NCBI GenBank assembly: GCA_964597575.1
Contig: CAZQXB010000001.1
Span: 274,111 to 338,110 of the forward strand
Source of the DNA: an uncultured Gammaproteobacteria bacterium
GTDB lineage: Bacteria; Patescibacteriota; Patescibacteriia; Magasanikbacterales; UBA922
Length of the DNA stretch: 64,000 nt
Direction of reading: 5' to 3'
Shown here: positions 2,096 through 57,327 of the stretch, piece by piece
Layout of the letters: every line of letters starts with the position of its first letter
Position numbering within the stretch: position 1 is the first letter of the stretch
Program-made: the position numbers and the translations under genes
The notes under the pieces: model-generated
The model's database searches: none
What the model was told of the DNA's origin: nothing
The model's input: the letters and a program-made list of their open reading frames with translations, nothing else

Positions 2096-2857
2096 CTAGC
2101 CAATGGGGTCACTGCTCGAACGAGGGAGAATTTCTACCTTTGATCGCTTCCACTTCTTAATAAGAAGTGCAGCTTCGGCTGCGGACACCTGGGCTTCCTG
2201 CTTACTCGATCCATTTCCCTCGGCCACCTTTTCCTTTTCTAAGTAGACCCCGACAATAAATTGTTTATTATGATCAGGCCCTTCCTCTTTGAGGACGCGA
2301 TACGTTGGAGTGATACCTAAAAGTTCCTGAGCCGCTTCTTGGAAGCGAGATTTTGGATCGACCCAAAGACCTTCTTCTAGTACATCGGGAAGGCGGCTAA
2401 TCACGAAGCGGGTGATAAATTGGTTTGTGATATCCCAACCTTGGTCAATGTAAATAGCCCCAATAAGCGCTTCCAGGGCATTCGCGAGAATATATTCTCG
2501 TGCTTTTGTGCCACTGTCTTTCGCTTCACCGTGGCTCAAAAATAAGTATGTTTCAAGGCCGAGTTCAGACGCAACGGCCGCACACATTTTAGCGTTTACA
2601 AGAGACGCGCGCCAGTTGGTCATGTCGCCTTCCGTATTTAAGTAGTTTTCAAATAAATACTGCGTCACCGAAAGTTCGAGAACCGCATCACCTAAAAATT
2701 CCATGCGTTCGTTATGAGCAAGAGGGAAGTCACGGTGTTCGTTTAAGTACGATCGGTGAACAACAGACTGTACTAAGTGATTCTTATTATGAAAATGAAT
2801 TCCAATGTGCTCTTCGAGCGCCGTAAATTTTTTTTCAGCGTATTCAGGAACGATCAT
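2096..2857 (-). CDS. rnc: Ribonuclease III
   Basis: RNase III signature ERMEFLGDAVLELSVTQYL; C-terminal dsRBD-like region. Confidence 0.9.
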   Translation of the reverse strand: MIVPEYAEKKFTALEEHIGIHFHNKNHLVQSVVHRSYLNEHRDFPLAHNERMEFLGDAVLELSVTQYLFENYLNTEGDMTNWRASLVNAKMCAAVASELGLETYLFLSHGEAKDSGTKAREYILANALEALIGAIYIDQGWDITNQFITRFVISRLPDVLEEGLWVDPKSRFQEAAQELLGITPTYRVLKEEGPDHNKQFIVGVYLEKEKVAEGNGSSKQEAQVSAAEAALLIKKWKRSKVEILPRSSSDPIG

Positions 2858-12158: not shown

Positions 12159-12926
12159 ATGTCGAACAAGGAAGCTTTTTTTGCTCTGCACACGTTCAAT
12201 CCGGCACTTGCCGGAGCCGTGGGCGCTGAGAGGGAGTTGTTTATCATCGAGAACGGAGTGCTGGTGCCGCGGGCTCCAGAAGTTCTGTCAGCCCTGTCTC
12301 ATGATCCTCGGTGGACGTACGAGCTGAGCGCTTGTCAGGTGGAATGCCGTACCACGCCAACGCATGATCCCTGGGAGTTGGTACGCGAACTGTGCGAACT
12401 TCGGCATCAAGTTGTCGGGGTCGCGAGACCGCTTGGGCTCGACGTGCTCTCTATGGAAGTGGCCCCGGCTACGATTCCACGAGAGGTATATCCCGACCCG
12501 AGATATGCGACCCTCTCAACCACCTTGCCTGAGGATCGGTTCCTTGCCGCGCTTCGTGTTGCCGGCACGCACGTTCATGTTGGTTGCGCGAATCTGGAAG
12601 AGGCTGTGAGAGTTCATGATGCACTCGTGGAGCATCTCGAGGAGCTTATCGCTCTCGGAAACTTTTCGGGCGGTGAGCGAATTCGTTTGTATGAGCGTGT
12701 CACGGCTCCGCATACCTATCCGCATTGTTACGGATCAGTAGATGCCTACTACGAAGATGCGGTTCGCTGCAATTTCACTTTGCAGCTTCGCAATAATTGG
12801 CATTTGATCCGCATTTCTCGGTACGGCACGGTTGAGGTAAGAGCGTTTGGTTCCCCTTTGTGTAACAGTAAAGTCGGGGACTGGGCTGCTCGTATCCAAG
12901 AGATCCGTGCCAACGCCATACGGTAG
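12159..12926 (+). CDS. Carboxylate-amine ligase of the YbdK/GCS2 (glutamate-cysteine ligase family 2) type; high-GC codon usage
   Basis: ERELFII..ELSACQVECRTTP, HVHVGC and GTVEVRAFGSP match GCS2 motifs. RBS agggagg. Shorter than E. coli YbdK at the C-terminus. Confidence 0.7.
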   Translation: MSNKEAFFALHTFNPALAGAVGAERELFIIENGVLVPRAPEVLSALSHDPRWTYELSACQVECRTTPTHDPWELVRELCELRHQVVGVARPLGLDVLSMEVAPATIPREVYPDPRYATLSTTLPEDRFLAALRVAGTHVHVGCANLEEAVRVHDALVEHLEELIALGNFSGGERIRLYERVTAPHTYPHCYGSVDAYYEDAVRCNFTLQLRNNWHLIRISRYGTVEVRAFGSPLCNSKVGDWAARIQEIRANAIR

Positions 12927-16826: not shown

Positions 16827-16994
16827 GAAGGTTTTCTAAAAAAGTTTGTGGGTAGCACTTAGCTGAAGAAGGGGATCATCTAAGTGCTACCGGACCTTAT
16901 GAGAGGGATACAAAGTTTGAACGGCAATGGCTGTTCAGCTCCGGTGCACAAACGGCAACGCAAACAATTCACCTCAACGACAAGGAGAAGAGTC

Positions 16995-17183
16995 ATGCGC
17001 ACCCAATTCGAGATCGATCCTGATGCGCCCAAGCCAGATCAAGATCGGGCCGCTCAGCTGCTGAGCTCTCTCGGCTCCTCCGGGATGGAGCGACGCCTCT
17101 TGGCACGGGATCTGCCGGAGGGAATCGTCGCCATCAGTGATGGGGACGAGATTCGTCGGGAGGATCTTCTTCGGGAGAAGTGA
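16995..17183 (+). CDS. Small acidic hypothetical protein (62 aa), high-GC codon usage
   Basis: RBS aaggag 8 nt upstream; GC3-rich codons unlike neighbouring genes. Confidence 0.3.
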   Translation: MRTQFEIDPDAPKPDQDRAAQLLSSLGSSGMERRLLARDLPEGIVAISDGDEIRREDLLREK

Positions 17184-17199
17184 TCAAGGAGGGCGCAGG

Positions 17200-17538
17200 G
17201 TGCTTCCTGCGGATCGGTCTCGTGCCATGCACGCGACAGGTCGGAAGAGCAATTGCGTTGCCTTCCCCAACGACATTCGGACCACGGTCCGGTTGTTGTG
17301 CGGGAAAGAAACAATTTTACCAAAGAGAGAGGGGTATCGCTTGAAAAGTGGTACTGGTAAGGTAAAGAGGGGTGATAGGCGGATGACGCCTGCTGATCAC
17401 GACGAGCTCAGCCTCATGAGAGCGGCTCGCGAGGAGGCTATGAAGCGGCCAGAGGCTTCTAGAGTAGTGCGGCATCTGGAGGATGCGATCAAGATGAAGG
17501 AGGAGTGGATCAATGGACAACGGGGAAGCAAACCCTAG
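17200..17538 (+). CDS. Small basic hypothetical protein, high-GC (GTG start after aaggaggg; alternatively a 51-aa product from ATG 17383)
   Basis: RBS followed by an ORF with GC3-rich codons. Confidence 0.25.
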   Translation: MLPADRSRAMHATGRKSNCVAFPNDIRTTVRLLCGKETILPKREGYRLKSGTGKVKRGDRRMTPADHDELSLMRAAREEAMKRPEASRVVRHLEDAIKMKEEWINGQRGSKP

Positions 17539-25971: not shown

Positions 25972-27505
<1,534 letters not shown>

Positions 27506-38401: not shown

Positions 38402-39004
38402 ATGAATATGAAAGAACAACAGGGTAGAGGTGGACGTGGTGGTCGCGGTCCTCGCGACAATCGTCCTCGTCGTGAAAAACCTGAGTTTGACCAACAAACC
38501 ATTGATGTGTCACGTGTGACACGTGTAACGAAGGGTGGTAAACAACTTTCGTTCCGTGTTTGTATCGTTATCGGAGACCGTAAAGGCCGTGTTGGATACG
38601 GAGTTGATAAAGGGAAAGATGTTCAGATGGCAATGGAAAAGGCTTTGAATCAGGCAAAGAAAAGTATGATTCGAGTTCCTATGTCAAATGACACCATTCC
38701 TCATCAGGTTTTTGCGAAAGAGAATGCGGGGAAGATCCTTCTTATGCCAGCCCCTCGTGGTTCGGGTATCGTTGCAGGAAGTGTCGTTCGTATCATTCTT
38801 GACTTGGCCGGAGTTCCAAATGCGTCTGCTAAGATTTTAGGAACAACAAAAAATAAATTAACGAACGTGAAGGCTACTTTTGCAGCACTCCGCGCGCTTC
38901 GTCCTTATGTAAAGCGCGTAAGTCCATCAAGAGAAAGTAAACCATCTGAGCCTCGCGAAGAAGGGGAAAAGAAGAAGGCCGTTGCCAAAAAAGCGAAAGC
39001 CTAA
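38402..39004 (+). CDS. rpsE: 30S ribosomal protein S5 (RGG-rich N-terminal and charged C-terminal extensions)
   Basis: Conserved S5 core. L15 follows directly, with no L30 gene between them. Confidence 0.95.
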   Translation: MNMKEQQGRGGRGGRGPRDNRPRREKPEFDQQTIDVSRVTRVTKGGKQLSFRVCIVIGDRKGRVGYGVDKGKDVQMAMEKALNQAKKSMIRVPMSNDTIPHQVFAKENAGKILLMPAPRGSGIVAGSVVRIILDLAGVPNASAKILGTTKNKLTNVKATFAALRALRPYVKRVSPSRESKPSEPREEGEKKKAVAKKAKA

Positions 39005-39025
39005 CTTTTGTAACCTCCACTCTAT

Positions 39026-39463
39026 ATGATTCAACTTCATACATTAAGCGATAATAGTCGCTCACGCAAAGGAAAGCGTGTCGGCCGCGGTGATGCTTCT
39101 GGGAAAGGGAAGTCCGCAGGTCGTGGTACAAAAGGTCAGCGTTCACGTGCGGGTGGCCGTCGTGGTATGCTTCGCCGTTCATTTAAAGATACGGTACAGA
39201 AAATGAAAAAATTGCGTGGTTTTAAGAGCCACACCGCACCGCTTGAAACCGTCACTCTTTCAACGCTTGAACGCGTGGCTATGCCGGGTGCCACCATTAC
39301 TCCAACATTTCTTCGAAAACGAGGCGTGGTTAATCAGCCAAAAAATGGCGTGAAAATCGTTGCTTCAGGAACCCTAACAAAAAAACTGGTGATTCGTGGT
39401 TGTTTGGTAACAAAAAATGCCGTAGAAATTATTCAGTCTAAAGGTGGTTCCATTGCCGTCTAG
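39026..39463 (+). CDS. rplO: 50S ribosomal protein L15
   Basis: Conserved L15. Confidence 0.9.
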   Translation: MIQLHTLSDNSRSRKGKRVGRGDASGKGKSAGRGTKGQRSRAGGRRGMLRRSFKDTVQKMKKLRGFKSHTAPLETVTLSTLERVAMPGATITPTFLRKRGVVNQPKNGVKIVASGTLTKKLVIRGCLVTKNAVEIIQSKGGSIAV

Positions 39464-39510
39464 TAACGAGTGTTCGTGGGCGAGGCGCCTCTCTCTTATA
39501 CATTATACGT

Positions 39511-40779
39511 ATGTGGGAAACTCTGAAACGCGTGTGGGCAGTTAAAGAAATTCGTCACAGCATGCTCTTTGTGTTGGGGGTATTAGTAGTATTTCGTATT
39601 ACTGCTCATATTCCAGTTCCTGGTGTTGATGTGAATGCCCTTCGTCAGTTTTTGTCTGGAAACGAAATTTTTGGTTTGCTTAACATCTTTGCGGGTGGAA
39701 GCATTCAAAACTTTTCGATTATCATGCTCGGTATTGGGCCCTACATCACTGCGTCCATCATCTTTCAGCTTTTGGCCATGGTAGTCCCAGCTTTTGAAGA
39801 GCTTTCAAATGAAGGGGAGACCGGACGACAGAAAATCAACATGTATACTCGTATTGCAACGGTACCACTTGCTTTGCTTCAAGGGTACTCCTTTTTGCAA
39901 CTGCTTCGCTCGTCGCAGCATCAAGTATTTACGACTGACTCTACTTGGCACATTCTCGCGGTTATGCTCATCGTGACCGCCGGCACCATCTTCCTTATGT
40001 GGCTTGGGGAATTGGTTACTGAGAAAAAGATCGGAAACGGAATTTCCTTGCTCATTTTTGCGGGTATCGTCGCATCGTTTCCGACCTACGTACAAAACGC
40101 TGTAGCAAACTACACTCCTGCTGACCTCACCACCTATATCTTGTTTGCCGCGATTGTTGTTGCAACTATTGTTGGCGTGGTTTTTGTCTCAGAAGGGCAA
40201 CGGAATATTCCAGTTCAGTACGCACGTCAGGCGAGCCGTGGCCGTGGGGTTGGGGCGGTTATGAGTCAGCTTCCGCTTCGGGTGAATATGGCAGGGGTAA
40301 TTCCGATCATCTTTGCGGTGTCGCTTATGCTCATGCCAACGGTGATCGCTCAGTTTTTCCTGAATGGTACCGGTCGTCTTGCTTCACTTGCGCAATCAGT
40401 AACACTTCTCTTCCAGAATCAACTCTTTTACGGAATTCTCTACTTTGTGATGGTGTTTGGGTTTACCTACTTCTACACCTCCGTAGTATTTCAGCCAAGA
40501 AAGATTGCCGAGAACTTGCAGCGTCAAGGCGGGTTTATTCCAGGAATTCGTCCAGGAAAAGAAACCGAAGAGTATCTTTCACGTACCATGACTCGTTTGG
40601 TGTTTGTCGGAGCGCTCTTCTTGGCCATGATCGCCATCTTGCCTCTTCTCATGCAGCTCGTCACCAGCTCACAAAACTTAGTGATTGGCGGAACGAGTTT
40701 GCTTATCGTGGTTTCAGTAGCTATTGAAATTGCGAAACAGCTTGAGTCGCAGCTCACCATGCACGAATACGATCGGTAA
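39511..40779 (+). CDS. secY: Preprotein translocase subunit SecY
   Basis: 10-TM SecY. Confidence 0.95.
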   Translation: MWETLKRVWAVKEIRHSMLFVLGVLVVFRITAHIPVPGVDVNALRQFLSGNEIFGLLNIFAGGSIQNFSIIMLGIGPYITASIIFQLLAMVVPAFEELSNEGETGRQKINMYTRIATVPLALLQGYSFLQLLRSSQHQVFTTDSTWHILAVMLIVTAGTIFLMWLGELVTEKKIGNGISLLIFAGIVASFPTYVQNAVANYTPADLTTYILFAAIVVATIVGVVFVSEGQRNIPVQYARQASRGRGVGAVMSQLPLRVNMAGVIPIIFAVSLMLMPTVIAQFFLNGTGRLASLAQSVTLLFQNQLFYGILYFVMVFGFTYFYTSVVFQPRKIAENLQRQGGFIPGIRPGKETEEYLSRTMTRLVFVGALFLAMIAILPLLMQLVTSSQNLVIGGTSLLIVVSVAIEIAKQLESQLTMHEYDR

Positions 40780-50695: not shown

Positions 50696-51727
50696 ATGAA
50701 TACTCCGGCCCTGGAGGGCAGAGTGCAGAAAAGAAAAAAAGGAGTTGTTGGAGCAAGCCTCCTTTTTTTGGCTATACTTGCCCTTGGTCTTGGATTCTTT
50801 TTTGGTCTTGATGTGGTAAAAGCGCCTACAAAAACAGTAAACAAAGCGCCTCAGATTGATTTTTCTTTATCTGATGTTGCATCTCTTGCTGCGGCGCTTT
50901 TTGCTGAACGCAGTACGCCGGCAGTTGTGGTTGAGCCAGCAGTTCTTCCGCCACTTCGGGTAAGTGAAGGGGACTTGCCGACAACCAGTGCTCACGCCTT
51001 TCTCGTGCGTGATGTTTCTTCGGGCGCGTTCCTTCTGAATGGTGATGCCTATACACCATTTGCGATTGCAAGCATTACAAAGCTTATGAGTGCGCTCGTC
51101 CTTCTTGATACCAAAATTGATTGGGAGGCTACAGCCATTGTACCCGCAGATGAAGTGTCAGATAGCCATGTGCTTTCGGGGGAAGTGCAAACAAAAGCAT
51201 GGCTTTGGCAGGCAGGCCTAGTTGGATCATCAAATAAAGCCATTCTTGCGCTGGTTGATAGTAGTGGTTTAACGCGCGAAGCCTTTGTGGTTCGCATGAA
51301 CGAAAAGGCCCGTGTGCTCGGAATGTCTCGTGCTGTGTTTACCGATCCAACCGGGCTTGAGGTGGGGAATCAGGCGAGTGTGGCTGATGTTTCGACGTTA
51401 CTCGATGCTGCCATGAAACAAGGAGAAATTCGCTCAGCCCTTATGACCCCGTCGTACGATATTGTTCGGGGTGGAAAAAAAGTGTCAACGGTTTGGAGTA
51501 CGAACTGGCTTATGCTTGGCTGGGTGCCGCATACATTTGCAAGTGTGATTGGTGGAAAAACAGGATACATTCCAGAATCTGGATATAACGTATCGCTTCG
51601 TATTAAAAATGAAGATGATCGTGAAATTGATGTGGTGGTGCTTGGATCAAGCTCGACCGAATCACGATTTACTGATGCGAAAAGTTTGGCCGAGTGGGTT
51701 TTTGCACATTACGAGTGGAAGGAATAG
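50696..51727 (+). CDS. D-alanyl-D-alanine carboxypeptidase (S11, PBP5-like)
   Basis: Signal/TM region; SITK (SxxK), SSN (SxN) and KTG motifs. Confidence 0.85.
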   Translation: MNTPALEGRVQKRKKGVVGASLLFLAILALGLGFFFGLDVVKAPTKTVNKAPQIDFSLSDVASLAAALFAERSTPAVVVEPAVLPPLRVSEGDLPTTSAHAFLVRDVSSGAFLLNGDAYTPFAIASITKLMSALVLLDTKIDWEATAIVPADEVSDSHVLSGEVQTKAWLWQAGLVGSSNKAILALVDSSGLTREAFVVRMNEKARVLGMSRAVFTDPTGLEVGNQASVADVSTLLDAAMKQGEIRSALMTPSYDIVRGGKKVSTVWSTNWLMLGWVPHTFASVIGGKTGYIPESGYNVSLRIKNEDDREIDVVVLGSSSTESRFTDAKSLAEWVFAHYEWKE

Positions 51728-51740
51728 GAGATATAAAACA

Positions 51741-51770
51741 AAAACAGCCAATTGATGCGGCTGTTTTTGT
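51741..51770 (+). terminator. Terminator after the carboxypeptidase gene
   Basis: aaacagcc-aattgatgc-ggctgttt then ttgt. Confidence 0.6.
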
Positions 51771-51853
51771 AAACTCTCTTTGAAAACAAACTCATGTTTA
51801 TTTTCACAGTGAAATTTTGGGCCAGAGCATTCGCGAAGGAATGTCTGGCCCGA
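51771..51853. repeat. 83-bp direct repeat copy 1 (3' of the island lipoprotein gene), containing palindrome TTTCACAGTGAAA and hairpin gggccaga/tctggccc
   Basis: Near-identical (about 96%) to 54399-54481. Confidence 0.85.
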
Positions 51854-51884
51854 TACCTACTGCAGGATTGCGAGTAGGGTGTGG

Positions 51885-53051
51885 CTACGGAGCCACGACG
51901 TTCAGGTAGCGGATGATCTGTCCCTCCATCCCGATTTCACTCGGTTGAAGCGGCTGACCGTTGCTCCAGAATCTGGTCCCTGTGAGCTGCGCAGCGTAGA
52001 TGGTGTCGGTGTGCCCTTGTCCCGGCTCGAGCCGGGCGATGTCCACCACGACGGTGAGCTGAATGGTTTCACCTCTCTCGACGGTCTGTACCTGTCCTTC
52101 TTTCGCGAGGGACATGATGCCATCCTGGTCGCTTCTCAGCATGCCGGTCCGCCGAACAAGCGGCGTCCTTTCAGACGTGAGCCCTTCGAGACCTCCGACA
52201 TGGAAACGACCATTCGTGATCACCGGATTGTCGCCCTGCCAGAGCGTCATGTTGCCGTTGCCGATCTGCCAGATGAAGTACTCGATGCCGCCGAACTGCA
52301 GCAGATCGCAGGCGGTGATGTTGAGCACCGCTACGAGCTCGTTCGTGACGCCCGTCGGTCCGAAGTAGTCGGGGAAACCCTGGTCTTGCGTGATCCAGAC
52401 TTTCCGGCCCGTCACCGAGCACGGATCGCTCGCCGGACGAACCACACGATATGTGTCGTGCGTGGCGTCGTTCCGGATGAGCCGCGCTGCCTTCCCATCC
52501 TCCGTGCGGGTTGCGCGGAGCATGTCTCTCATGAGCCGGACCGAGTAGATACCATCCTCCTCGGCCGTTATGGGAATCCGACCGTACAGGGTGAGTCGGA
52601 GCGTGCGCCTTTCGGGCACGTTCGTTACATCCTGCGCGAGAGGTACCGAGATGATCCCGCCGATCATCTCGAAGAGCTTCTCGTAGCTTCCGTCGTGCTC
52701 CACCTTGCGGAACACTTCGGTCATGTGCGGGATCTCGAGGAAGATCGGGCTGACGTCGACCGTATTGCAGGCCGTGATCTCGAGGGTGATGAGGCGGGCC
52801 TCCCACCCGCGGTTGTACGTCCGCAGATCGTCGGTGGTGACCACGTTGATGTCGTAGTCGCCGTCCGGACACTTCTGGTCGAGTCGCTCCTCGAGCGTGA
52901 GCTCGGGATCCTCCCCCGACGGCTCCCCCTGGGGGAACGTGACGTCCGGCAGATGGATGTTGACGGTCGGCGCCGGGGCCATGGGCTCCTCACCGCACGC
53001 GGCGATGATGCTGGCGAGCGCGATGCTCGCCAGCAGGTTGAACTTCTTCAT
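51885..53051 (-). CDS. Lipoprotein (388 aa), high-GC codon usage
   Basis: RBS gggaggaag. Signal peptide MKKFNLLASIALASIIAAC with lipobox. GC3-rich codons. Confidence 0.7.
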   Translation of the reverse strand: MKKFNLLASIALASIIAACGEEPMAPAPTVNIHLPDVTFPQGEPSGEDPELTLEERLDQKCPDGDYDINVVTTDDLRTYNRGWEARLITLEITACNTVDVSPIFLEIPHMTEVFRKVEHDGSYEKLFEMIGGIISVPLAQDVTNVPERRTLRLTLYGRIPITAEEDGIYSVRLMRDMLRATRTEDGKAARLIRNDATHDTYRVVRPASDPCSVTGRKVWITQDQGFPDYFGPTGVTNELVAVLNITACDLLQFGGIEYFIWQIGNGNMTLWQGDNPVITNGRFHVGGLEGLTSERTPLVRRTGMLRSDQDGIMSLAKEGQVQTVERGETIQLTVVVDIARLEPGQGHTDTIYAAQLTGTRFWSNGQPLQPSEIGMEGQIIRYLNVVAP

Positions 53052-53246
53052 GGTAACTTCCTCCCTGGAAGTATGGTGAGAATGGACGCGTGATTGCGCC
53101 AGTCTATATTTGGGTTTTTGATTCCCCTTCGAGAGAAGATACATCAGTGTCCCATATAGGGCCACGACGTACCCTCCTTCGAAGGAGAATATTGTAAAGA
53201 AATTGTTGTTCACTTGTAGAGACAGATCTCTATTTATGAACAAGAG

Positions 53247-53317
53247 AGTATATCATAAAATGGTGGTTTTGTCAAGAGGTAAAAGGTTATATTTCTCTTA
53301 TTTTAGGTAAATTATGA
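53247..53317 (-). promoter_or_regulatory. Island promoter 1 (TTGACA-17-TATACT on the minus strand) plus conserved upstream element
   Basis: -35 at 53270-53275, -10 at 53247-53252. Element tcttattttaggtaaattatga lies 21 bp beyond the -35. Confidence 0.6.
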
Positions 53318-53343
53318 CGTCTATGTTTGCCTTTAAAAAGTAA

Positions 53344-53381
53344 AACTTCCTCGTGTCGACCCGATGGGACAGGAGGAAGTA
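53344..53381 (-). terminator. Terminator for the 250-aa island gene
   Basis: cttcctc...gaggaag stem followed (minus strand) by ttttacttttt. Confidence 0.5.
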
Positions 53382-53438
53382 GGTGGGCGTAGTGCCCGGT
53401 AGGTAGGACCCCACATCACTCCGGAGAGTGGAAAGAGG

Positions 53439-54191
53439 TTATGACTTGGTTCCAGAGAGAGTATCGAAGAATTTGCCTAGGCCCAAGTAGACCCGGTACT
53501 TCTTCTTATCCGGCTCCCTCGGACCGTAGAACAGACCCTCGTCGTTGAGGTACGGCTCTCCGTACATTACTCCCATGACCGGTCTGTAGTATGGGCGCCA
53601 ACACTCGGGATCGCGCTCGCCTGCTTGTTGGGCGAAGAAGAAGATCCGGTTCGGCATCTTGCGCGTCCAATGGACTATCCCGTACGAGTCCTTCAGGTCA
53701 GGACGCTCTTGTTCCGGTCTCACTTCGAAACTCATCGAGGTGGAGGCTTCGAAGAGCTCTCGGAAGTCCGCGTGGGATGAGTTGAACGGGACATCCATTC
53801 CGGGGTTCAAAAGCCCCTCGGTGAACAGTCCTTGGTCCATTCGGAAACCGTGCATCCCACCTTCATCTTCTGGGACGTACCAGTTCCTTCTCATCGTGAG
53901 CTTAAGTTCTTTCGTGTGAAAGGCCTTTTGAGAGGCCTCGAGAAAGCTACCGCATTGAGCGCGGAACTCGTCGGGGGAGATCGGGATCGTGAACACCCCC
54001 ATCCTCTTTTTTCTTTCGAGGATGGCGAAGAAGTGGCTAGGTGAATCGCTGGTCAAATGTCCAGCATCCTCCTCGCTCTTCTCGGTCATCTCCCATCCCC
54101 AGAGCCTCTGCCTTTTCTTCGCCACCACGACCTGCGCGACCCGCTCTTCCTTAGAGAAGAAGTTCTTTGCGTCTTCATTGTTATTGGCCAT
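53439..54191 (-). CDS. Hypothetical cytoplasmic protein (250 aa), high-GC codon usage
   Basis: RBS ggagagggaag; no signal peptide; no recognisable motif. Confidence 0.55.
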   Translation of the reverse strand: MANNNEDAKNFFSKEERVAQVVVAKKRQRLWGWEMTEKSEEDAGHLTSDSPSHFFAILERKKRMGVFTIPISPDEFRAQCGSFLEASQKAFHTKELKLTMRRNWYVPEDEGGMHGFRMDQGLFTEGLLNPGMDVPFNSSHADFRELFEASTSMSFEVRPEQERPDLKDSYGIVHWTRKMPNRIFFFAQQAGERDPECWRPYYRPVMGVMYGEPYLNDEGLFYGPREPDKKKYRVYLGLGKFFDTLSGTKS

Positions 54192-54252
54192 CTGATCTTC
54201 CCTCTCCTTTTTGGGGTTGTTATGCTACCTTTGCTTTAAAAAGGTAACAAAA

Positions 54253-54326
54253 AATTATACTCCTTTTTTTTGGTTTTGTCAAGAGGTAAAAGGTTATATT
54301 TCTCTTATTTTAGATAAATTATATGA
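54253..54326 (-). promoter_or_regulatory. Island promoter 2 (TTGACA-17-TATAAT) plus conserved upstream element
   Basis: -35 at 54276-54281, -10 at 54253-54258. Element 54303-54326 lies 22 bp from the -35. 40 bp identical to promoter 1. Confidence 0.6.
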
Positions 54327-54398
54327 TTCATACGGGTCATAAAAATGAGAGCAAACAAAAACCACCAACCGGTGAAAAGGTTGGTGGTTAATATGAGC

Positions 54399-54481
54399 AA
54401 ACTCTCTTTGAAAACAAACTCATGTTTATTTTCACAGTGAAATTTGGGGCCAGAGCATTCGCGAACGAATGTCTGGCCCGA
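54399..54481. repeat. 83-bp direct repeat copy 2
   Basis: See copy 1. Confidence 0.85.
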
Positions 54482-54534
54482 ACCTGCCGGGGGAGTCTCG
54501 GTAGACTCTACCTAGGTAGGCGGGCAGGGTGCCC

Positions 54535-55128
54535 TTACTGATTCGACATGATGGTGTAGCTTCTCGTCGTGTTGCTGAACTCGACGATCGCCGGAGACCC
54601 ATCTGCGCGGAGCGCGTCGAATTCGACGAGCCTGACCTCTCGGGTAACGCCCGGTCGGATCCACGGATTGGTGTCCACGACGAACGTGAGCAGGTGGGGA
54701 CCATCTTCGACGAGAACGTCATCGTCATCTTCGTTGAGCGTCTCGCTCCACGAGATCACGAGGTTGTTCGACCCGTCATCGACGCGCTCGACGTCGCCGA
54801 GGTTCCTTCCATCGAAGGAGACCGCGACGATGTTCGAGATCGAGTCGTTGAAGAGGGTGCCGAGGAGAACCTCGGTGTACTCCACCGAAACGTCCTTGGA
54901 AGCCGGGTTCCACCGGAGCTCGAGGGTGACGGCGAAGGGTTCACCTGCCTCGACTTCGAGCCCATCGTTGATGGGGAACATGGTCACCGCCATGTCCGGG
55001 TCCGGTTGCGGTTCGCCCAGGTTCTTGATGTCGACCTCGCGGTAATCGAGGGGCGACAGATCCGTCCTCCCACATGCCGTGGAGAAGAGCGTGGGGAGCA
55101 AAGCGTAGCAGAGCAGTCGGTTGAACAT
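54535..55128 (-). CDS. Lipoprotein (197 aa), high-GC codon usage
   Basis: RBS aaggaggaag; signal peptide ending LFSTAC; acidic mature part. Confidence 0.65.
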   Translation of the reverse strand: MFNRLLCYALLPTLFSTACGRTDLSPLDYREVDIKNLGEPQPDPDMAVTMFPINDGLEVEAGEPFAVTLELRWNPASKDVSVEYTEVLLGTLFNDSISNIVAVSFDGRNLGDVERVDDGSNNLVISWSETLNEDDDDVLVEDGPHLLTFVVDTNPWIRPGVTREVRLVEFDALRADGSPAIVEFSNTTRSYTIMSNQ

Positions 55129-55334
55129 GGCAACTTCCTCCTTGGAAGTGTGTTAGAGTGGCGCTCCATGCGCCAATCTCTCTATCAAGGTTTGTATTTA
55201 TTCCCCTTCGAGTAAAGATACATCAGACGCTCCACCTGGGAACGCGACGTACCTGTATTCGAAGAGGAATGTGTCTATATAAAGAGCAAAAATGCTTCAC
55301 AGGTGGCTTTTTAGGCAAACACTGTGAACGGCAT

Positions 55335-55405
55335 AGTATAGCACAAAAACACTGTTTTGTCAATATGTGATTGGAAAAATTTGTCTTATTTTAGCTAAAT
55401 ATGAT
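55335..55405 (-). promoter_or_regulatory. Island promoter 3 (TTGACA-17-TATACT) plus conserved upstream element
   Basis: -35 at 55358-55363, -10 at 55335-55340. Element tcttattttagctaaatatga lies 22 bp from the -35. Confidence 0.6.
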
Positions 55406-55588
55406 GTGTATAAGTTTACAAAGTCTGCGTGAAAAATACCCATTGACTTTTTTCAAAGAATATGGTACAAATATATGTCGCTTTTTTGTATAAAAAATTT
55501 GAATAATGCGACATCAGTAACGTCACCAAAACTCAACTTGCATGGTGCAGGAAGAGGGATGGTGCAACAACTGAGGGAGACAAAAGAA

Positions 55589-56080
55589 ATGACGACCGAC
55601 AACTTGCTCAACAGCTTCAAGAGCGCGGGCATCGCGTTCGCGTATTCGGGATCTGCGATGTATCCGCAGATCCCCTCGGTCAAGGACGTGCTCTATGTCC
55701 TCAGGATCGAGGAGAAGCCGGACGTGTACCAGAGTGCCCTCGGGAACCACTACGACTATGTGAGCAACGTCGCTCTGGTCGTGTCCGCGGTCGCGTTCAA
55801 CGTGCTCGACGACATGCTCGATACGATGACGCGGGAGATGGTCGTGGCGCTCGCGATCATCGATCTGTGCCCGGACGAGGCCAGGTGTCTCTCCAATCCG
55901 CGGTACGCCGACGTGTTCCGGATCGTGAACCAGGATCCGTCGCTCGAGCCCGCGCTCGCGCCGGATGCGACGAGGGAGATACTCCAGGGGTTCTGCACCT
56001 GCCCCGCACACGGGAAGGCGGGTGCGGCGCAGGGCGGCGGCAGCGTCGCGGACCAGCACCGCGGCTGGAGCGCGAGCTGA
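55589..56080 (+). CDS. Hypothetical protein (about 163 aa; alternative start 55559), high-GC, divergent from lipoprotein gene 3
   Basis: RBS gagggag; GC3-rich codons; strong terminator downstream. The antisense ORF is Arg-rich junk. Confidence 0.55.
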   Translation: MTTDNLLNSFKSAGIAFAYSGSAMYPQIPSVKDVLYVLRIEEKPDVYQSALGNHYDYVSNVALVVSAVAFNVLDDMLDTMTREMVVALAIIDLCPDEARCLSNPRYADVFRIVNQDPSLEPALAPDATREILQGFCTCPAHGKAGAAQGGGSVADQHRGWSAS

Positions 56081-56106
56081 ACATGGCTCGGCGCTGAGTA
56101 TACATG

Positions 56107-56160
56107 TCCGGCAGGAAAATCGAACTTCGGTTCGACGAGTACTGCCGGGCTTTTTTAATT
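56107..56160 (+). terminator. Rho-independent terminator ending the island
   Basis: ccggcag...ctgccgg stem then gcttttttaatttgttttttt. Confidence 0.7.
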
Positions 56161-56358
56161 TGTTTTTTTGTTGGGAGGGGGATCTCACTCGTCGCTCATT
56201 TCATTCGCTCCTCTTGGGAAAGGGCTTCCGCCCCTTCCCAACCATCCCCCAGCAAAAGTGAAAACCTACCGGTTTTCAAGCTTTCCCCAGTTCGACCCAC
56301 CTCCTGCCCTGTCAAACAAATTATAAAACCAACCTGGTTAGGTCGGTTTTATTATTTG

Positions 56359-56442
56359 TGGGCGAGGAGGGGGTCGAACCCTCAAGACCTTGCGATCGCG
56401 GGATTTTGAGTCCCGTGCGTCTGCCAGTTCCGCCACTCGCCC
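56359..56442 (-). tRNA. tRNA-Leu (anticodon CAA), long variable arm
   Basis: Reverse complement GGGCGAGTGGCGGAACTGGCAGACGCACGGGACTCAAAATCCCG...GGTTCGACCCCCTCCTCGCCCA. Confidence 0.85.
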
Positions 56443-56526
56443 GTATTTGTACGAGCATAATACTCATTTTTGTCTTTTTTGTCAATTTTCGGTATACTTG
56501 TCTGAACAGTTCGGCTTCCTTGTTTT

Positions 56527-57327
56527 ATGACCAAAATTATTGCTGTCGTTAATCAAAAAGGTGGAGTGGGAAAAACCACGACCGCCATGAATTTGGCTGC
56601 GGCACTCGCTGAGGAAGGAAAGTTTGTGCTCCTTGTTGATATGGATCCCCAAGGGAATGCTTCAAGTGGGCTCGGGGTAAATAAAAGCACGACCGAACAC
56701 GGGGTATACGAGGCACTTGCAAAACAAAAGCGGCTACATGATGTCGTACAGAATACTGGCCATGAGGGTCTGCGCGTTGCCCCTGCCACGTCAAATCTCG
56801 CTGGAGCGAATGTTGAATTAATCGACGTAGAACGCCGTGAATTTCAGCTGTCAGACCTTCTCGAAGAGGTGCGTCATGCGTACGATTACATTGTTATCGA
56901 TTGCCCACCCTCGCTTGGTCTCCTTACCATTAATAGTTTGGTTGCCGCGGACGAGCTTCTTATCCCGGTTCAAGCCGAATACTATGCGCTTGAGGGGTTA
57001 GGTCAACTTTTGGAAACCATCGGGCTTATTAAAGAACATATTAAAGCTGATTTGAAGGTGCTTGGTGCGGTCATTACCATGTTTGATAAACGGAACAAGC
57101 TGTCGACCGACATCATGAATGAATTATACAAATATTTTCCCAACAATATTTTCCAAAGTGTTATTCCTCGCACGGTCCGTTTGGCCGAGGCGCCAAGCTT
57201 TGGAAAATCGATTTTTCATTACGAACCAGGAGGTAAGGGGGCGAAAGCGTACGAACGCTTAGTCAAAGAAATTCTTTTACGCCATGATGAAGAACTGGCC
57301 TTGGCCGCTTCTCAGGCACAATCATAA
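56527..57327 (+). CDS. parA: Chromosome partitioning ATPase ParA/Soj
   Basis: KGGVGKTTTA deviant Walker A. Confidence 0.9.
   Translation: MTKIIAVVNQKGGVGKTTTAMNLAAALAEEGKFVLLVDMDPQGNASSGLGVNKSTTEHGVYEALAKQKRLHDVVQNTGHEGLRVAPATSNLAGANVELIDVERREFQLSDLLEEVRHAYDYIVIDCPPSLGLLTINSLVAADELLIPVQAEYYALEGLGQLLETIGLIKEHIKADLKVLGAVITMFDKRNKLSTDIMNELYKYFPNNIFQSVIPRTVRLAEAPSFGKSIFHYEPGGKGAKAYERLVKEILLRHDEELALAASQAQS

Follow-up and report, generated by a model that had tools for sequence, protein, structure and literature searches.

Genes of the GC-Rich Island

The stretch of DNA analyzed here, referred to as the window, is 64,000 nucleotides long and contains four open reading frames (ORFs) that form an island between positions 51885 and 56080. 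Their GC3 values are in the range 0.71–0.89, compared with 0.32–0.45 for the host genes, which include those of EF-Tu, EF-G, and ribosomal proteins. Two of the island genes, both on the minus strand, are preceded by the leaders that are the subject of this work. The first of them, lipo388 (51885–53051, GC3 0.82), encodes a predicted lipoprotein of 388 residues with a signal peptide ending with IIAAC, and the second, lipo197 (54535–55128, GC3 0.81), encodes a probable lipoprotein of 197 residues, with LFSTAC as an atypical lipobox. The other two genes are also GC-rich and have no family assignment. P250 (53439–54191, minus strand) has its own consensus promoter, and P163 (55589–56080, plus strand) is preceded by the promoter TTGACT-17-TACAAT, recognized by eye, and ends with a terminator that includes a UUCG loop.

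None of the four island proteins has a match in Pfam or PHROGs. Among 5.8 billion proteins, the sole match of lipo388 is lipo388 itself, and lipo197 has no homologue. P250 has only weak relatives (E values of ~1e-6, the best being 3.6e-6), one of which is encoded in the large genome of an ordinary bacterium (L019). The structure model of lipo388 is not usable (pLDDT of 31). The AlphaFold model of lipo197, based on a single sequence, is all-β and of low confidence (pLDDT of 56.6), with weak matches to the β-sandwiches of cohesins, pilins, and adhesins (TM score of ~0.47), giving only a hint that this protein might be a surface binding module.

The composition changes at the start codon, with the leaders remaining at the host's own GC content of 44–46%. 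High expression was considered as the cause of the high GC3 and rejected, since GC3 is ~0.4 in the genes of EF-Tu, EF-G, and the ribosomal proteins. Two other patches of raised GC content are present in the window. One of them (12159–12926) is an ORF resembling GCS2 (glutamate-cysteine ligase family 2), with GC3 of 0.56, and the other (16884–17538) consists of ORFs without family assignment, with GC3 of ~0.62; both may represent other foreign or atypical genes. Elsewhere in the window (38402–40779), the gene of S5 is followed after 22 nt by that of L15 and then by that of SecY, with no L30 gene, and the 16S rRNA gene (25972–27504) has no adjoining 23S gene. The missing L30 and the lone 16S gene weakly suggest a host of the CPR/Patescibacteria type.

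Promoters and Predicted Start Sites

The minus strand carries the leaders as well as both lipoprotein genes, and transcription runs from right to left. Both genes have near-consensus promoters of the sigma-70 type, TTGACA-17-TATACT, each scoring 11/12. The promoter of lipo388 is located at 53247–53275, with TG ahead of the -10 box, and that of lipo197 at 55335–55363. The extended TTGACAAAAC promoter type is also used elsewhere by the host, for example ahead of tRNA-Leu. All four leaders compared below retain the -35 and -10 boxes and the spacer of 5 nt that precedes GTTCA. The position of the promoters, together with the conserved GUUCA, predicts G53241 and G55329 as the start sites. The first hairpin of the leader, P1, begins 6–7 nt after the -10 box in each of the four leaders and, judged from the promoter position, would be located at the very 5' end of the mRNA.

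Upstream of the -35 box of lipo388 there is an AT-rich block, CTAAAATAAGAGAAATATAACC (53285–53306, minus strand). It occurs in three copies (CTAAAATAAGAGAAAT...), compared with 0.04 expected, the further ones being located at 54292–54313, in the promoter of P250, and at 55373–55394, in the promoter of lipo197. The block is a part of the 76-nt repeat family D1, the copies of which are 72–79% identical to the reference. It is absent from the related loci L015 and L020 described below, and it also precedes P250, a gene without a structured leader. This block could be either an UP element or a shared operator.

Architecture of the Leaders

In the preliminary description of this DNA, the leaders were placed at 53052–53246 (lipo388) and 55129–55334 (lipo197), in agreement with the transcripts predicted here; counted from the predicted start sites, their lengths are ~190 and ~200 nt, respectively. 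All of the sequence blocks that had been quoted as shared are present, and all belong to the mRNA sense of the minus strand, the first three having been quoted as the plus strand and the last one as minus-strand RNA. CTGATGTATCTTNNCTCGAAGGGGAAT is found at 53121–53147 and 55200–55226, and ACTTCCANGGAGGAAGTTNCCATG at 53049–53072 and 55126–55149; for each of them, the expected number of occurrences is 0, and none was found in 100 shuffles. The sharing of the blocks holds overall, the exception being TTCGAAGGAGAAT, which reads TTCGAAGAGGAAT in the second copy. The two differences between these sequences are both compatible with wobble pairing inside a helix.

That the leaders are structured RNAs, as had been proposed, is supported by their folding, which is far better than that of shuffled sequences (z = -7.7 for lipo388 and -5.3 for lipo197). 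In the in silico fold, each leader consists of four hairpins, P1–P4, with A/U-rich linkers between them. The shared blocks noted previously are the two strands of the long hairpin P2, plus P4. P1 is located at the predicted 5' end and has the base GUUCAU/GUGAAC in lipo388 (53208–53241); in lipo197 (55296–55328), it folds as UUCACAG...CUGUGAA. A single-stranded CUUUAYA element (53193–53199 in lipo388, and the equivalent positions elsewhere), which is kept in all four leaders, lies a few nucleotides upstream of P2. This element also resembles a -10 box, and a weak promoter-like site was scored at 53220–53191.

P2, assigned from the fold, the alignment, and the energies, is a hairpin of 70–71 nt (53121–53190 in lipo388, 70 nt; 55200–55270 in lipo197) that forms a nearly continuous helix of ~27–30 bp with small interruptions. 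Its base of 12 bp (AUUCUCCUUCGA/UCGAAGGGGAAU) is followed by a middle helix (GGUACGUCG/UGAUGUAUC) and capped by a variable apex. The calculated energies are -43.8 kcal/mol for the sense versus -27.1 kcal/mol for the antisense strand in lipo388, and -38.5 versus -26.5 kcal/mol in lipo197. P3 has the general form GGCGC-loop-GCGYC with flanking AGA/UCU. In lipo388 (53079–53105), the four-leader alignment gives it as AGA.UGGCGC-loop-GCGUC(C)A.UCU, and in lipo197 (55155–55179) the fold and the alignment give GGCGC-AUGGA-GCGCC with the same flanks. P4, the hairpin at the ribosome-binding site, has the general form ACUUCC-ARGGA-GGAAGU and ends 4 nt upstream of the AUG. It is ACUUCC-AGGGA-GGAAGU in lipo388 (53056–53072, with the ATG at 53051–53049) and, as seen in the fold and in a pattern search, ACUUCC-AAGGA-GGAAGU in lipo197 (55133–55149, with the ATG at 55128–55126). 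All of these features are on the minus strand.

Conservation of the Leader in Other Organisms

One more copy of the leader, L015, was identified by scanning 185,579 species genomes; it comes from a metagenome-assembled genome that carries the label 'uncultured Gammaproteobacteria'. This copy is preceded by the same promoter and followed by a gene of an unrelated, GC-rich lipoprotein of 458 residues. A scan of metagenomes led again to a single organism, identical to the one from the genome scan; the pattern used in both scans would miss variants such as the one described next. The lipoprotein of L015 has one homologue (P0010, 56% identity), encoded on a JGI contig, L020, where it is preceded by a fourth, more diverged leader. 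The promoter, P1, P3, and P4 of this leader are the same as in the others; in its P2, one base pair is missing from both strands and the apex is wholly replaced. The comparison set consists of four leaders from three organisms (lipo388, lipo197, L015, and L020). In all four cases the gene behind the leader encodes a lipoprotein-type signal peptide, beyond which lipo388, lipo197, and the L015 protein show no detectable relation to one another. L015 and L021 (CAZYEQ010000007.1) have the promoter type and the cassette in common with the window organism, as well as a similar GC content, and the 'uncultured Gammaproteobacteria' label of CAZYEQ010000007.1 may be wrong.

Each of the four leaders folds far better than its shuffled versions (z between -5.3 and -8.0). 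The proposed pairs are formed in 94.4% of the cells of the four-leader alignment, compared with 37–57% when the partners are slid by 1–3 columns, and eight pairs have changed on both sides yet remain paired; between 0 and 4 of 500 shuffles reach the observed values. The degree of conservation differs among the hairpins. In P1, all four leaders retain the base UUCA/UGAA, in which one pair has changed from C-G to U-A, and the upper part is variable. In P2, the lower 22 bp and the 3' strand are conserved in sequence, with 27 nt identical in three leaders, and the 5' strand drifts through wobble pairs. All cells of P3 are paired (100%), with two pairs changed on both sides. In turn, all six pairs of P4 are invariant in the four leaders, and hence this hairpin shows no covariation. 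Its arms are invariant while the adjoining linker and the spacing between the Shine–Dalgarno sequence (SD) and the AUG vary, and the case for P4 is based on this conservation of both arms amid variable surroundings, not on covariation.

The covariance model built from the four leaders scores them at 116–140 bits in the sense and at 24–37 bits in the antisense orientation. The energies of P2 follow the same direction (-35 to -44 kcal/mol for sense versus -20 to -33 kcal/mol for antisense), with the G-U pairs making P2 more stable in the sense strand by 2–17 kcal/mol. This asymmetry favors a helix formed in RNA over a palindrome in DNA. The leaders are conserved outside the window genome as well, with compensatory base changes in the four-leader alignment. 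With the same covariance model, no further copy was detected in the window or in the other examined loci. Rfam 15 at the gathering threshold identified only the 16S rRNA and tRNAs in the whole window, and the leaders remained without a match in a permissive scan (E values up to 10) of the region 51500–56700. In the viral collection, scans for exact patterns yielded only chance matches or none, and BLASTN with the leader gave no match in the phage and plasmid collections.

The two leaders of the window are 63–75% identical, which marks them as old copies. The identity between the leaders of L015 and L020 is 58–63%, about what would be expected for neutral DNA from the dS of ~0.5 in the adjoining ORF, and for this reason selection has to be argued from the block pattern and the compensatory changes. 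In all, just four sequences, belonging to three organisms, support a structured mRNA leader.

The Hairpin at the Ribosome-Binding Site

The 3' end of the 16S rRNA is canonical (CACCUCCUUUCU). It had been proposed that the SD is occluded by a hairpin immediately before the start codon. The hairpin itself, P4, is predicted in all four leaders, but the occlusion is not, since the first four bases of the SD, RGGA, are located in the loop, with a probability of being unpaired of 0.64–1.0. The paired part is limited to the GG of the SD and the spacer AAGU. The stem consists of six canonical pairs with no mismatches. The P4 of L015 has a lower pairing probability, and in the minimum free energy fold of its 223 nt it is replaced by long-range pairing. 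The duplex between the SD and the anti-SD is calculated at -12.5 to -17.3 kcal/mol, compared with -6.2 to -7.7 kcal/mol for P4, and, because the former outweighs the latter, the ribosome should be able to open this hairpin. In these models, the P4 hairpin is half-open: it presents the SD, can be opened by the ribosome, and is neither occluding nor heat-labile.

The 3' Blocks and the Evolution of the Cassette

Similarity between the two transcription units is also found downstream of the ORFs. A block of 83 nt in the 3' UTR of lipo388 (51771–51853, minus strand) is 98% identical to its counterpart behind lipo197 (54399–54481, minus strand), the two forming the repeat family D2. In lipo388, the block includes the hairpin GGGCCAGACAUUC-CUUCGC-GAAUGCUCUGGCCC (51819–51851) and is followed by a terminator (51738–51770); in lipo197, the hairpin (54447–54479) has a G(UUCG)C loop, and the terminator is located at 54360–54389. 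A homologous hairpin is present in L020 and L021, with a compensatory change from U-A to C-G. These 3' hairpins are very stable, and three of the four have a UUCG loop. The parts common to the cassettes are non-coding only (promoter, leader, and 3' block), and the ORFs that they enclose are unrelated. The term 'paralogous cassettes', used previously, is appropriate in the case of the promoter, the leader, and the 83-nt 3' block, but it does not extend to the two proteins, which are not detectably related.

In both L020 and L021, the cassette occupies the same place, with a DUF1761 gene on one side and a DUF305 gene on the other. The orthologous lipoprotein genes of these two genomes (L020, 5277–6584; L021, 2434–3810) also have high GC3, within the range 0.71–0.89. 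Their dS is ~0.5 and their dN/dS is ~0.6, whereas the neighboring pair of DUF1761 genes (L021, 1307–1720; L020, 4567–4977) has dS of 2–3 and dN/dS of 0.10–0.16. These values would be explained either by exchange of the cassette after the split of the lineages or by constraint on its synonymous sites; under either reading, the comparison indicates that the lipoprotein evolves fast. An assembly artefact or a chimera was rejected as a source of the island, since the same junctions are present in independent assemblies (L016, L017, L018, L021, and L022).

An inverted, diverged copy of the 3' end of tRNA-Leu(caa) (GTTCGACCCACCTCCTGCCC) is located at 56290–56309 on the plus strand, just inside the boundary of the island. 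The tRNA-Leu(caa) gene itself is found at 56358–56442 on the minus strand, with a terminator hairpin between the gene and the inverted copy. The inverted copy may be the remnant of an integration site; no matching copy was found at the other edge of the island. Neither an integrase-like ORF nor a corresponding Pfam match was found in the island or next to it. An integron attC site was likewise considered and rejected, since P2 is located between the promoter and the ORF, and the RYYYAAC/GTTRRRY core sites are absent.

A Possible Role in mRNA Stability and Translation

The analysis shows the promoters, the conserved and covarying structures, and the half-open SD; the start site and the effects on mRNA stability and on translation are inferred. 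We tentatively favor a reading in which the leader may be a constitutive cis-acting module that stabilizes the transcript and sets the level of translation within a portable expression cassette. Such a cassette would consist of the consensus promoter, the self-folding leader with its four hairpins, a GC-rich lipoprotein ORF, the extra-stable 3' hairpin, and the terminator. With P1 at or next to the first transcribed base, the 5' end would not be single-stranded, and P1 and the long helix of P2 would jointly shield the mRNA from decay starting there. P4 would keep the ribosome-binding site in one defined local fold, with RGGA exposed and the GG and the spacer paired, so that the loading of ribosomes would be fixed, and somewhat damped, whichever ORF follows. 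The consensus promoter, the constant spacing of P1 from the -10 box, the stable 3' hairpins, and the presence of unrelated ORFs behind one type of leader are all in keeping with a constitutive role in cis; the very stable 3' hairpins would suit a long-lived transcript.

Stem-loops at the 5' end are known to stabilize bacterial mRNAs, as in the case of ompA of Escherichia coli, and it is the 5' UTR stabilizers of this type, found on abundant mRNAs of envelope proteins, that the leader would most resemble in its mode of action. The features in common are a long leader (>130 nt) ahead of a gene of an envelope protein, a stem-loop at the 5' terminus (here a predicted one), additional hairpins split by A/U-rich single strands, and a last hairpin that adjoins the ribosome-binding site. 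However, there is no homology in sequence or structure, nor is there a sign of control by Hfq or an sRNA, and P2 is much longer (~30 bp) and is conserved in sequence. The latter property is the main weakness of the stabilizer reading. A pure stabilizer needs pairing only, and the sequence conservation of the lower stem and the 3' strand of P2 would suggest a specific partner. The lack of covariation in P4 and the small number of distinct sequences, only four, are further points on that side.

Possible Alternatives: Operator, Cassette Exchange, and RNA Processing

The main rival explanation, possible but rather unlikely in our estimation, provides such a partner. The leader would be an operator for an RNA-binding protein or an antisense sRNA acting in trans, with its binding site either in the 3' strand of P2, which is invariant, or in the ARGGA loop of P4. 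Capture of the P2 3' strand would set free the 5' strand, UUCUCCUU, a mimic of the anti-SD, which would then pair with the SD and turn translation off; in the sRNA version, which is related to the sRNA target suggested in the preliminary description, the candidate sRNA would be complementary to GUAUCUUNNCUCGAAGGGGAAU. The identity of 27 nt of the 3' strand in three leaders, next to a 5' strand that drifts, is in line with this mechanism, and blocking the 3' strand in silico does lead to pairing of the 5' strand with the SD in three of the four leaders. However, the switch costs 21–26 kcal/mol, the lipo197 leader does not form the alternative pairing, and no complementary sequence is present in the window.

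The protein version of this explanation draws on a resemblance to the sites of CsrA/RsmE. Those operators have a GGA in a short hairpin loop overlapping the SD, and this arrangement is found in P4, where the loops are AGGGA, AAGGA, and AAAGGA and the stem is short; additionally, the loop of P3 is AUGGA in two of the four leaders. On the other hand, such operators have two or more GGA sites at suitable spacing, this second GGA site is missing from the other two leaders and is thus not conserved, and CsrA/RsmE operators have no long helix similar to P2. A tblastn search with two CsrA sequences gave no match to a CsrA gene in the 64-kb window, which is a part of the genome only, or in the other examined loci.

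We can also speculate, as an unlikely extension of the cassette model, that the conserved frame of promoter, leader, and 3' hairpin would constitute a portable, integrase-free system in which GC3-rich surface lipoproteins, orphans that evolve fast, are exchanged between bacterial lineages with small genomes and swapped by recombination of the non-coding flanks, the leader being an insulator against context that guarantees expression of any inserted ORF. Two known arrangements have a similar layout, and the likeness is one of layout only. Morons of phages are also single ORFs with their own strong promoter and terminator, deviant base composition, and signs of an age lower than that of their flanks, but the cassettes described here are not in the context of a prophage, they have no counterpart in the collections of viruses, phages, or plasmids, and the promoter type is the host's own. 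The vsp/vlp loci of Mycoplasma similarly contain lipoprotein genes with a common promoter and 5' UTR and with wholly different mature proteins. They differ from the cassettes described here, in which neither a phase-variable tract nor an invertible element nor repeats within the genes were detected, the nucleotide sequences of the signal peptides are not conserved, and only two copies are present in 64 kb.

P2 could alternatively be a processing site of RNase III, the cleavage of which would remove P1, remodel the leader, and either set the half-life of the mRNA or activate translation. RNase III cuts helices of this size, its substrates being about two turns or more in length; P2, with its 27–30 bp, is long enough, and the host has an RNase III gene (2096–2857, minus strand). 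We nevertheless consider this explanation quite unlikely, since the enzyme does not require conservation of the stem sequence, and cleavage would discard the conserved P1.

Similarity at the Level of DNA, Temperature Sensing, and Other Candidates

It is improbable that the similarity of the flanks exists at the level of DNA only, with the flanks being tracts of gene conversion or recombination anchors for the swapping of ORFs, and the hairpins having no function in RNA. The 98% identity of the 3' blocks around unrelated ORFs would agree with this explanation, as would the sequences preceding the promoters, which share 79% of the positions of the 76-nt repeat and, ahead of the -35 box, include a long run without differences, and the cassette of L020 and L021, which in terms of dS (~0.5 versus 2–3) is younger than its flanks. 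The leaders of the window are, however, too diverged to have been converted recently, and neither an integrase nor core sites of the attC type are present. In addition, the compensatory changes and the G-U asymmetry in favor of the sense strand point to a helix in RNA.

The idea that P4 is an RNA thermometer, in which warming would melt the hairpin and free the SD, was put forward in the preliminary description and can be considered very improbable. A hairpin that involves the SD is indeed conserved in all four leaders, and in this respect P4 is similar to the ROSE and fourU thermometers, which also have a hairpin at the SD in the 5' UTR. In RNA thermometers, the SD or the AUG is held by weak or non-canonical pairs that melt at physiological temperatures, whereas no such pairs are found in P4, and its predicted melting is far above that range. 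The isolated hairpin is calculated at -6.2 kcal/mol at 37 °C, -4.1 kcal/mol at 50 °C, and still -2.5 kcal/mol at 60 °C, and in both leaders of the window the probability of pairing of the 3' half of the SD stays, in silico, essentially flat at 0.92 or above from 15 to 50 °C. In L015 it decreases over the same range from ~0.95 to ~0.6–0.7, corresponding to a partial opening in silico. Only the last two bases of the SD are paired, the signature motifs of ROSE and fourU are absent, and there is no match to either in Rfam. A thermosensor is unlikely because P4 stays closed in the leaders of the window and has no mismatches, half of the SD is already exposed, and the duplex between the SD and the anti-SD is stronger than the hairpin.

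A leader peptide, MYL[L/Y]SKGN..., encoded by the invariant 3' strand of P2 and controlling the downstream gene, can hardly be given any credit: an AUG with a purine-rich stretch 5–6 nt upstream of it is present in three leaders, but it is buried in a stable helix, the frame enters the main ORF without a stop in lipo388, and the candidate is contradicted by L020, in which the AUG is lost and the frame is shifted by a 1-nt deletion. A riboswitch was also rejected, since the four hairpins are independent, with no junction and no terminator/antiterminator pair, and the alternative fold carries the cost of 21–26 kcal/mol given above.

Implications

If the leader is functional as proposed in the stabilizer reading, or in another role, it would represent a cis-acting RNA motif not previously described; it has no match among the catalogued RNA families. 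To our knowledge, no well-characterized control of genes at the RNA level has been described in CPR bacteria, and a search of the literature gave no pertinent result. The surface lipoproteins with which the motif is associated are without relatives in public protein collections, with the exception of one orthologous pair, which is fast-evolving. The contrast in GC3 (~0.8 versus ~0.4 in the host), taken together with the synonymous divergence of the cassette, which is several-fold lower than that of its neighbors in the one pair of genomes compared, points to a class of surface-protein genes that would be either mobile or specially constrained. Such a class of genes could bear on the interaction between these bacteria and their hosts.
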